From a virus, in IMG/VR virus record IMGVR_UViG_3300024299_000001, positions 64,001-128,000 of that record: 64,000 nucleotides of DNA; one strand, 5' to 3'. The notes below the pieces were generated by a model. That model worked only from the letters and a program-made list of their open reading frames with translations. It was not told where the DNA came from and did not search any database. Below, piece by piece: positions 41,404 to 43,655 of the stretch (its first letter is position 1; each line of letters begins with the position of its first letter). The position numbers and the translations under genes are program-made.

Positions 41404-41514
41404 ATGCCCAATATAACATTGACCCAAGACCAAGATAATGCTCTTAACTCTTTTCTTGATTTTCTTAATCAACCAAAAGAGAAATACATGATAATCCAAG
41501 GAGCTGCTGGATGT
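41404..41514 (+). CDS. SF1 (Dda/RecD-like) DNA helicase, exon 1
   Basis: ATG at 41404 with AAGGAG upstream. MPNITLTQDQDNALNSFLDFLNQPKEKYMIIQGAAGC ends in the middle of the Walker A motif. Confidence 0.8.
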
Positions 41515-42494
41515 TAACTTATAGCATCCTTTGAGGAGCAATCCTCTCAAAATAAATTCCGTGAATTGCTGGAAACTCTTAGCACGTAATGGTGAAGACA
41601 ATCAGCAGCCAAGCTTAGGAAGGAATTCCTTTGAAGGTTCAACGATCAGGATATACTGCCCAGAACGGGGAATGAAATCCATAGAGATCAAGTGATCTCG
41701 AAGTGCGGAACTCTATATAACAAATAATTCATTGATTTTCCTAAAATTAAAGAGTAAACCTTATGTAAGGTTTAAACGTATAAATAAAGGAAAATATCAT
41801 GCAAGAACAGATTCGAGACATTAAAGGCTATGAAGGTAGATATCAAGTTACTAACACAGGTAAAATTTTTTCTTTACCTAATGGTAGCAGAAAAGGAATA
41901 AGAGAATTAAAACAAGAAATAAGCAAACGAAAATGTACTTCTTACAGAAGAATTACATTAAGTGTAAACGCCAAACCAAAACGTTATCAAGTACATCAGT
42001 TAATGGCTATTGCTTTTATTCCCAATCCTGATAATAAACCTTTTATTAATCATATTGATAATAATGGTGAAAATAATTTTATAGATCCCAATGACTTATA
42101 TGGCCCTAATACAAATATCGAATGGTGTACTCATAAAGAAAATATGAAACATTCGTTTAATCAAGGCCGACAAGACTTGGTAAAAAAATTAGGCGGTAAA
42201 GCTACTGCTACAATTAAAAAAATTAAAACTATAAAAAAATTAAAATCTTTATTAAATAATAGATTAATCACTACCAGTATTTATAGTACACATTCAGGTA
42301 CTCGTAGAAAAGTCACATATCAATGTAAATATTGTAATAATGTTTTTAGTAGAAGATCTGATTCACCCGCCGTATTACGTGGTGGTGTATGTACAGATTG
42401 TTATAGAGATGATGATATGATCTAGACTGCATAGAAATATGTAGAAGTTCATTGACGAACTGATGTAAATTAACGCCTTACATTGAATGTTTCG
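41515..42494 (+). mobile_element. group I intron (980 nt) with HNH homing endonuclease, inside the helicase Walker A codons
   Basis: Joining 41514 (U) to 42495 restores GAAGC|GKSTL (GxxGxGKS/T). The intron's last nucleotide is G (42494). The 5' core elements GAATTGCTGGAAAC (41563-41576) and CAATCAGCAGC (41600-41610) recur in the intron at 56.2 kb. Confidence 0.8.
41799..42425 (+). CDS. HNH homing endonuclease (NUMOD4 + HNH_3), intron-encoded
   Basis: IKGYEGRYQVTNTGKIFS (NUMOD4), VHQLMAIAFIPNPDNKPFINHIDNNGENN...EWCTHKENMKH (HNH) and a C-terminal Cys4 cluster. Confidence 0.85.
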   Translation: MQEQIRDIKGYEGRYQVTNTGKIFSLPNGSRKGIRELKQEISKRKCTSYRRITLSVNAKPKRYQVHQLMAIAFIPNPDNKPFINHIDNNGENNFIDPNDLYGPNTNIEWCTHKENMKHSFNQGRQDLVKKLGGKATATIKKIKTIKKLKSLLNNRLITTSIYSTHSGTRRKVTYQCKYCNNVFSRRSDSPAVLRGGVCTDCYRDDDMI

Positions 42495-43655
42495 GGTAAG
42501 AGTACCCTTATTAAATATCTGATGAGAGCACTGGAAGCTCAATATAAAATGTATGCACTCCTGCTGCAGACCAATAAAAAACAAAGTAAATTTGAAGTAA
42601 GGGTTTCAGCAACAACCAACCAGGCAGTCTCAGTACTTGAAGAATTAACGAACTGTGATGCAACTACTATCCATTCTCTTCTTGGTTTAAAAGTTGTTAA
42701 TAATATTAAAACTGGTAAAACTGAACTTGAACGTAAAAAAGATTATGCCCCTCTTTATAATAAATTATTTATAATTGATGAAGCCAGCATGATTGATGAT
42801 AACTTATTAAAAGAAATTGATGCTACAGCTAAAAACTCTAAAATAGTTTTAATTGGAGATGAATGGCAACTTGCTCCAGTAGGACAAAAGATTGCAACCA
42901 TGTCCACTCTTAATTTCAGAAAAGTTAAAATGAATAAGATTTTAAGAAATAGTGGTGCCATCATGCAGACGGGTGCACAATTCCGAGAGACAGCTGAAAC
43001 AGGCATCTTTAAACCAATTAAACAAGATCCCACTGTTGCCCATGTTACTGGATCCAAGTTTCAAAGATTAGTAGATGCCGCTTTCATGGATCCAAATTAT
43101 GTAACCAATTCAATTAAAGTACTGGCTTGGACCAATGCCAGAGTACAGGCCTACAATGCTCATATCCGTCAAATCAACGGGTACGCCAAATTACTACAAG
43201 CTGGAGAATATGCAATTACTAATAATGCCCTTAATGAAAGAGGTTATTTTTATAAAACAGATAGTTTTGTTAAAATTACTGATGCAAGCAGTGAACGAGA
43301 AAGATTAGGAGTACGCGGACGCAATATTGAAATCAATGGCAAATTAATTGGTTTCATGGCAAATGATCCTCATGATGTTAAATTACTTTTAAAATCATTA
43401 GCTGCACAGAAAGAATGGACTGATTATTTCAGTGTTAAAGAGACTTGGTTTGACCTCCGACCAGCATATGCCAGTACAGTGCATAAAGCCCAAGGTAGGT
43501 CCTACAATACTGTATTTATTGACCTGGCAGATATAAGTAAATGCAGGGTTGCATCAGACGTTGCGAGAATGCTATATGTTGCCATCAGTCGCAGTAAACA
43601 TCAGGTCTATTTATACGGCCAATTACCCCCTAAATATGGAGGTTACAAACCATAA
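42495..43655 (+). CDS. SF1 (Dda/RecD-like) DNA helicase, exon 2
   Basis: GKSTLIKYL, Walker B LFIIDEASMI, LIGDEWQLAPV, and motif V/VI ASTVHKAQGRSYNTVFIDL. Confidence 0.8.
   Translation, partial: GKSTLIKYLMRALEAQYKMYALLLQTNKKQSKFEVRVSATTNQAVSVLEELTNCDATTIHSLLGLKVVNNIKTGKTELERKKDYAPLYNKLFIIDEASMIDDNLLKEIDATAKNSKIVLIGDEWQLAPVGQKIATMSTLNFRKVKMNKILRNSGAIMQTGAQFRETAETGIFKPIKQDPTVAHVTGSKFQRLVDAAFMDPNYVTNSIKVLAWTNARVQAYNAHIRQINGYAKLLQAGEYAITNNALNERGYFYKTDSFVKITDASSERERLGVRGRNIEINGKLIGFMANDPHDVKLLLKSLAAQKEWTDYFSVKETWFDLRPAYASTVHKAQGRSYNTVFIDLADISKCRVASDVARMLYVAISRSKHQVYLYGQLPPKYGGYKP

Follow-up and report, generated by a model that had tools for sequence, protein, structure and literature searches.

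The DNA analysed here is a stretch of 64,000 nucleotides (the window). It was taken from an IMG/VR virus record that is 131,274 bp long and has direct terminal repeats, and covers bases 64001-128000 of it. On its plus strand, to which all features described below belong unless stated otherwise, a helicase gene is laid out in two parts, exon 1 at 41404..41514 and exon 2 at 42495..43655, and the sequence between them contains the core of a group I intron together with an open reading frame (ORF) for an HNH endonuclease at 41799..42425. A giant ORF of the virion-RNA-polymerase type on the minus strand (1..6186, open at the window edge) and the best helicase matches, which lie in Schitoviridae at ~36% identity, identify the source virus, as judged by its gene content, as an uncultured N4-like phage. 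A megablast of the intron region against GenBank phages gave no match.

We interpret the interruption as a mobile phage group I intron of the IA2 type that sits inside the Walker A codons of a Dda-like helicase gene, GAAGC^GKST (the caret marks the insertion point here and below), and that encodes an I-HmuI-like HNH endonuclease. We give this reading a probability of about 0.92. It is carried by the exact boundaries, an empty allele, a covarying group I core and the family of the endonuclease.

Exon junction and the intron-less allele

Exon 1 comprises 37 codons, from the ATG at 41404, which has AAGGAG 7 nt upstream, to TGT at 41512-41514. It reads MPNITLTQDQDNALNSFLDFLNQPKEKYMIIQGAAGC, its protein ends in ...IIQGAAGC with GAAGC as the first half of the Walker A motif, and a TAA (41515-41517) follows directly. 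Exon 2 comprises 386 codons from GGT at 42495 and starts with GKSTLIKYL, the second half of the motif, with neither a Shine-Dalgarno sequence nor an ATG at this start. Its product contains the domains AAA_30, AAA_19 and UvrD_C_2 and matches PHROG 325 'Dda-like helicase' with an E value of 1.8e-89, and the host gene is assigned by these similarities to the Dda-like SF1 helicases (N4 gp37-type). The Walker A and the SF1 motifs come to lie in a single polypeptide only once the exons are joined. The coordinates and reading frames of both exons are those of the original prediction, which had also named U as the last exon base (41514) and G as the last intron base (42494); both read as claimed, and the insert at 41515..42494 is exactly 980 nt long.

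Joining the exons in silico yields a protein of 423 aa in which GAAGCGKST is restored, the break falling between codons 37 (Cys) and 38 (Gly). Exon 1 aligns with the N-termini of uninterrupted helicase homologues, and no gap is needed at the junction to align the joined protein to the complete helicases from three phages (Erwinia phage Ea9-2, Escherichia phage phi G17, Stenotrophomonas phage Piffle), with IIQGAAGCGKSTLIKYL here and IISGAGGVGKTFLMGYL in the helicases of N4-like phages, to which the identity is 36%. Nearer homologues from metagenomes (72%, 69% and 54% identity; 421-424 aa) are likewise uninterrupted and read IIQGAAGCGKSTLI or IIQGAAGSGKSTLI at the junction, and all 12 of 12 distant IMG/VR relatives of the helicase lack an interruption. 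The proposed restoration of the Walker A motif is thus supported by gap-free alignment to uninterrupted helicases over a range of 36-72% identity, and by the natural empty allele described below. Other splice sites at the three Gs 42494-42496 were considered and rejected, as they either break the frame or produce GAAGCCKST.

Three independent lines of evidence bear on the junction, and the decisive one is a natural empty site. The contig IMGVR_UViG_3300022888_000011 matches window positions 39015-41514 with 8 mismatches in 2500 bases (99.7%) and then runs straight into 42495-42729 at 100%, with no base gained or lost. It contains the helicase gene without exactly 41515-42494, a coincidence far too precise for chance, and its junction reads TGT^GGT within ...GCTGGATGT^GGTAAGAGT... 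Since the same contig keeps the gp24-like ATPase region with an intron of its own (see below), it represents phage DNA and not the copy of a spliced RNA. A search for further empty alleles with a degenerate junction pattern returned only this contig from IMG/VR and none from the metagenome collection. The intron-bearing allele was read in 24 contigs and is identical across independent Logan and ENA assemblies over a stretch of 2.7 kb. We conclude that the intron is mobile, the one line of support being its presence/absence polymorphism between phages that are 99.7% identical.

Ribozyme core and endonuclease ORF

An Infernal scan with the Rfam model Intron_gpI (RF00028), suggested together with the original prediction as a check of it, returned a match at 41509-41673 with 43.3 bits and an E value of 2e-9, spanning model positions 5-158 from P1 to P7. 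A second, weak match at 42271-42444 (19.5 bits) placed J8/7-P7' (GAUGAUAUGAUCU) and P9 at 42413-42444. The matches were reported only by focused scans and by the search of the phage's own genome, that is, of the whole record.

The paired elements could be assigned over the whole intron, which starts with an in-frame UAA and terminates in the omega-G at 42494. P1 is formed by the exon sequence GGAUGU plus U41515 (41509-41515) and the internal guide AGCAUCC (41523-41529), with the U41514·G41524 wobble exactly at the proposed 5' splice site; it was found by pair check, by covariance-model alignment and in the minimum free energy (MFE) fold. P10 connects CUUAU (41518-41522) with GUAAG of exon 2 (42496-42500) by 5 bp, as seen by pair check. 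P2 (41530..41551) is a hairpin with a GCAA tetraloop, found by pair check and MFE fold. The 5' strand of P3, UUCCGUG (41557..41563), pairs with its 3' strand UGCGGAA (41704..41710), for which both compensatory changes and the MFE fold speak. The P4-P5-P6/P6a domain (41566..41638) consists of P4 (41567-72/41602-07), P5 (41577-80/41595-98), P6 (41608-10/41636-38) and P6a (41617-41621/41626-41630), the latter with a GGAA loop. The 5' strand of P7, GAUCA (41644..41648), is preceded by the conserved J6/7 sequence UUCAAC and pairs with UGAUC at 42418-42422. It is followed by P7.1 (41649..41680), for which covariation and the MFE fold were obtained, and P7.2 (41684..41699; AAGU loop), the two being joined by AUA. 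The presence of P7.1 and P7.2 between P7 and the 3' strand of P3, joined by G-U-A, is the criterion for subgroup IA2 (PMC3428280). The 5' strand of P8 (41711..41723, CUCUAUA..ACAA) has its partner at 42398-42408, and the loop closed by this helix accommodates the endonuclease ORF. P9 (42427-42444; GAAA loop), P9.1 (42447-42460) and P9.2 (42463-42483) complete the 3' part. The MFE fold of the single sequence has a z-score of -1.9.

Covariation supports this core. Its 5' part is 73-83% identical to introns of other phages, namely those by which the DNA polymerase gene is interrupted in Bacillus phage Nigalana and in Enterococcus phage fHoEfa06, and similarly near cores are present in Vibrio phage 1.161.O (primase-helicase), Vibrio phage 249E41-1 (terminase) and a gene of the Pseudomonas N4-like phage ZC08. 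RNAalifold applied to six phage introns recovered P3, P4, P5, P6, P6a and P7.1; of the 36 pairs, 19 showed compensatory changes. For P3, UUCCGU/GCGGAA of the helicase intron is replaced by CUACGU/GCGUAG, CUAUGU/GCAUAG or CAGGGU/GCCCUG in others, including those of Vibrio 1.161.O, Vibrio 249E41-1 and ZC08. P7 covaries among the three introns of this genome (GAUCA/UGAUC in the helicase intron, GACCA/UGGUC and GACUA/UAGUC in the other two), and the helicase intron differs from the consensus GACUA/UAGUC by paired changes. The 3' tail from P9 to P9.2 aligns and covaries with the other introns of the window and with those of fHoEfa06 and VCO139, and in the alignment the terminal G of all three introns of the window falls into one column. 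The two sequence elements that had been noticed to recur near 56.2 kb were found again as exact copies, GAATTGCTGGAAAC at 41563 and again at 56216, CAATCAGCAGC at 41599 and again at 56252; they correspond to the J3/4-P4-J4/5 and P4'-P6 elements in the cores of two introns that are related to each other. The identification as a group I intron was thereby borne out by the U·G pair of P1 at the splice site, by P10 to the 3' exon, by the covarying core and by the natural intron-less allele.

Two other pairing partners were examined and discarded. Rfam places the 3' strand of P3 at 41664-41673 (CCAGAACGG), a segment that is invariant in the six introns and shows no covariation with the 5' strand of P3, whereas 41704-41710 covaries with it. 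The second UGAUC at 41693-41697 could be taken for the partner of P7; by homology it is the 3' strand of P7.2, and the J8/7 consensus and P9 accompany the copy at 42418. The P7.2 hairpin, GAGAUC-AAGU-GAUCUC, contains both GAUCA and UGAUC, as do the strands of P7, and could form alternative pairings with P7. In related introns the P7.2 stems are unrelated to that of the helicase intron.

The ORF at 41799..42425 encodes 208 aa, is preceded by AAGGA 8 nt upstream of its ATG and follows 284 nt of noncoding intron sequence, for which ~285 nt had been stated. Its description as a NUMOD4/HNH ORF was confirmed by matches to NUMOD4 (E 1.2e-7), to PHROG 59 'HNH endonuclease' (E 2e-33) and to I-HmuI (PDB 1u3e; E 2.2e-15); for Pfam HNH_3 no match was reported at E<0.01. 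Residues 6-129 align with I-HmuI; the H...N...N residues line up, among them H85 (NHID) and N115 (KEN), and a loop contains an insertion of 9 residues. The C-terminal 40 residues hold a CxxC-17-CxxC pattern that likely represents a zinc ribbon. By membership, with a NUMOD4-type module and an HNH motif, the predicted product is a homing endonuclease of the I-HmuI type, the characterised relatives of which are nicking enzymes (PMC3428280). A search of IMG/VR with the endonuclease yielded 18 relatives of at most 45% identity. In no case is a Dda-like helicase the neighbour, nor does a P-loop ATPase exon with GK[ST] at its start follow any of them.

The last nine codons of the ORF and its stop (28 nt, 42398-42425) double as the 3' strand of P8, J8/7 and the 3' strand of P7. 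On any one transcript, translating the ORF to its end would therefore compete with ribozyme folding. Just upstream of the start of the endonuclease, within 41756-41786, the intron contains a hairpin, AAACCUUA..UAAGGUUU, and after it TATAAATA (41779-41786), which equals the consensus of T4 late promoters. Here expression of the ORF might be driven by a promoter inside the intron, or regulated in another way. A scan for sigma-70 promoters and terminators stayed at the level of the shuffled background and was uninformative.

Predicted splicing and homing, and alternative explanations

According to our interpretation the helicase gene would be transcribed as a single pre-mRNA, and a ribosome translating exon 1 would halt at the UAA that makes up the first three bases of the intron. 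The RNA would fold from P1 to P10, guanosine would attack after U41514 and the exons would be ligated after G42494, giving a 423-aa helicase with an intact P-loop. During co-infection the endonuclease would probably nick or cut intron-less alleles near TGT^GGTAAG, and repair would copy the intron into them (homing). Splicing and catalysis by the ribozyme, the activity of the enzyme and the timing of expression are predictions from the sequence.

Several observations weigh against a functional IA2 intron with an I-HmuI-type enzyme. The Intron_gpI score of 43.3 bits stays below the gathering score of 50, and Rfam run at the scale of the window gave no match, neither at the gathering threshold nor at E<=0.01. 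The linker between P7.1 and P7.2 is AUA and not the cited GUA, which is present in the two other introns of the window and in ZC08. In the endonuclease, an Asn (NHID) replaces the Asp that stands beside the catalytic His in I-HmuI. Moreover, the searches gave a single contig with an empty site, of which the last 235 nt are all that it covers of exon 2. The low Rfam score is explained by the 674-nt P8 loop with the ORF, which breaks the model in two; two homologous introns whose cores are contiguous exceed the cut-off, those of Vibrio 1.161.O (94 bits) and ZC08 (88.9 bits).

The sub-threshold score would also fit an intron that has decayed and is dead for splicing, which would leave the helicase as a pseudogene or its function to another gene. 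However, all core helices, the U·G pair, omega-G and P10 are intact, and the guide sequence is specific to the exons that it adjoins here. Neither exon has its frame interrupted, and where they could be compared with the intron-less allele (all of exon 1, and exon 2 over its first 235 nt) they are identical to it. In addition, the intron-bearing form is the one present in most assemblies (the 24 contigs), an unlikely outcome with a dead replicative helicase, and we consider a decayed intron improbable. Less probable still is a gene in pieces, in which a free-standing HNH gene has broken up the helicase, whose halves are made as separate proteins and then reassemble, as in Aeh1 nrdA/mobE. An ORF of the size of exon 2 can indeed start at the TTG at 42483, but no Shine-Dalgarno sequence precedes either 42483 or 42495, the break inside the P-loop leaves a fragment of 37 aa, and a covarying group I core is formed by the sequences on either side of the HNH gene. 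An artefact of assembly, or a chimera in which the helicase was joined to some unrelated HNH region, comes to mind since the record is a metagenome-derived virus genome, but it is ruled out by the identical sequence in the independent Logan and ENA assemblies, and the boundaries match the ribozyme features and the empty allele to the base. The intron reading accordingly remains the one we prefer.

Related introns and known systems

The helicase intron is accompanied by two further group I introns. The first (~36391-37273) lies in a gp24-like AAA+ ATPase gene (36206-38123) and carries an HNH ORF at 36518-37111; the search of the phage's own genome matched its 3' half, with P7 GACCA/UGGUC, P7.1, P7.2, P8 and P9, to Rfam at 37017-37223 with 33.6 bits. 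The other (~56190-57117) splits an AAA_24 (Sak4/gp44-like) ATPase gene (56073-57732) after the Walker A sequence GSSGGGKS and carries an HNH_3 ORF at 56342-56947. Its P4/P6 motifs are shared by the helicase intron, its 3' tail by the gp24-like intron. Both resemble the helicase intron in the P4/P6 core motifs, in the CAAGUG loop of P7.2, in the J8/7-P7'-P9-P9.1-P9.2 tail and in having HNH ORFs. They differ from it in that their ORFs are placed ahead of P7, within the P6 region, whereas the ORF of the helicase intron lies in P8, and in their insertion ~20-27 codons downstream of Walker A and not inside this motif. Thus, three group I introns are found in the replication module of one N4-like phage. 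In the contig with the empty helicase site the gp24-like region is only ~94% identical to that of the window, whereas the helicase flanks reach 99.7%. Immediately behind the gp24-like gene (window ~38131) this contig has ~390 extra bases (its positions ~43283-43673), an indel between the two phages.

The closest counterpart of the helicase intron was found in N4-like phages of Vibrio cholerae. Similarity to the full-length endonuclease in the phage collection is nearly confined to VCO139, JA-1 and JSF3 (39% identity, including the C-terminal CxxC...CxxC), and 6 of the 7 records that cover at least 80% of the query belong to these phages. In VCO139 (KC438283.1) the HNH gene (VCO139_0032; JA1_0032 in JA-1) lies in an unannotated group I intron of 940 nt at ~18289-19228 of the record (within 2106-3477 of the extracted locus). 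The intron splits the homologue of N4 gp24, an AAA+ ATPase with 42% identity to the gp24-like gene of the present phage, between GSPGV and GKS and hence inside the Walker A codons. Its exon 1, of 33 codons, is unannotated, and exon 2 is recorded as hypothetical protein VCO139_0033 from an internal ATG. For the gp24, DNAP and gp43 homologues of these Vibrio phages it was described that they are split by HNH genes, and introns were suggested as possible carriers (PMC3670811).

The two introns share the host type, an N4-like phage, and the insertion at the same codon boundary of Walker A, GxxGx^GK(S/T). Both begin with UAA, both have the ORF after P3' with its stop UAG right after P7', and both have the same 3' end, UGAAUAUUCG^GGUAA (...UGAAU.UUCG^GGUAA). 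The 5' half of the VCO139 intron gives an Rfam match of the same shape (52 bits). On the other hand, its host is a gp24-like AAA+ ATPase that is not homologous to the SF1 Dda-like helicase, there are differences in the regions of P5 and P7.1, and its P1 and P10 fit its own exons (GGUGUU/AGACACC and AGAUUUA/UAAAUCU). In the present phage the corresponding Walker A site of the gp24-like gene, GGTATT^GGTAAA, is empty.

The shared position fits a movement between sites that code for P-loops, but it could also result from independent targeting of a conserved motif. A lineage of intron and endonuclease may recognise P-loop DNA (~GGNNNT^GGTAAR), may have moved between non-homologous ATPase genes of N4-like phages and may then have re-tuned its P1/P10 guide; we regard this as a tentative scenario with somewhat lower odds than its opposite. 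The ribozyme cores are mosaic, and the related cores of Vibrio 1.161.O and ZC08 sit outside Walker A sites. If the scenario were true, such hopping between P-loops would represent ectopic, motif-directed transposition of an intron rather than homing from allele to allele. That a related intron has the matching insertion position in another P-loop ATPase offers a modest clue, open to testing, as to how these elements pass from one gene to the next.

It is textbook knowledge that essential phage genes can harbour group I introns with HNH endonucleases. The helicase intron belongs to this ordinary kind of phage parasite and leaves the general knowledge of group I introns unchanged. A literature search found no paper that describes an intron for the helicase of an N4-like phage or, more broadly, for any Dda-like helicase. 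For annotation, the helicase has to be recorded as one protein of 423 aa, and not as the 37-aa ORF and the truncated 'helicase' of 377-390 aa that gene callers record in at least 24 contigs. Likewise, in the records of Vibrio phage 1.161.O, Nigalana, fHoEfa06, Vibrio phage 249E41-1 and ZC08 the introns are unannotated, and the halves of the primase-helicase, DNA polymerase or terminase appear as separate coding sequences. One of these five introns carries a GIY-YIG ORF and the rest HNH ORFs, and their cores reach up to 94 bits in Rfam. The natural pair of phages with and without the intron is suited for homing experiments.

With respect to characterised systems, the helicase intron resembles the introns that interrupt DNA polymerase in the Bacillus phages SPO1 and SP82 (I-HmuI and I-HmuII) and the IA2 intron of Pf-WMP3 (I-PfoP3I; PMC3428280), all of which are phage group I introns with an HNH homing endonuclease in an essential replication gene. 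The match of its ORF to I-HmuI covers the N-terminal and the HNH domain, and P7.1 and P7.2 are present, as in IA2 introns. It differs from all of these in its host gene and insertion site, from I-HmuI, which has a C-terminal domain of its own, in the putative zinc ribbon, and from the Pf-WMP3 intron, where the ORF starts in P6a (PMC3428280), in an ORF that lies in P8. Among N4-like phages, Vibrio phage pVa5 contains a group I intron in td, the gene for thymidylate synthase (PMC5746245), and HNH insertions are known from the Pseudomonas phages ZC03 and ZC08 (PMC5418858). The core of the ZC08 intron is 82.6% identical to that of the helicase intron over 86 nt, while the host genes in pVa5 and ZC03/ZC08 are others, namely those for thymidylate synthase, an ATPase-domain protein and RNAP2.

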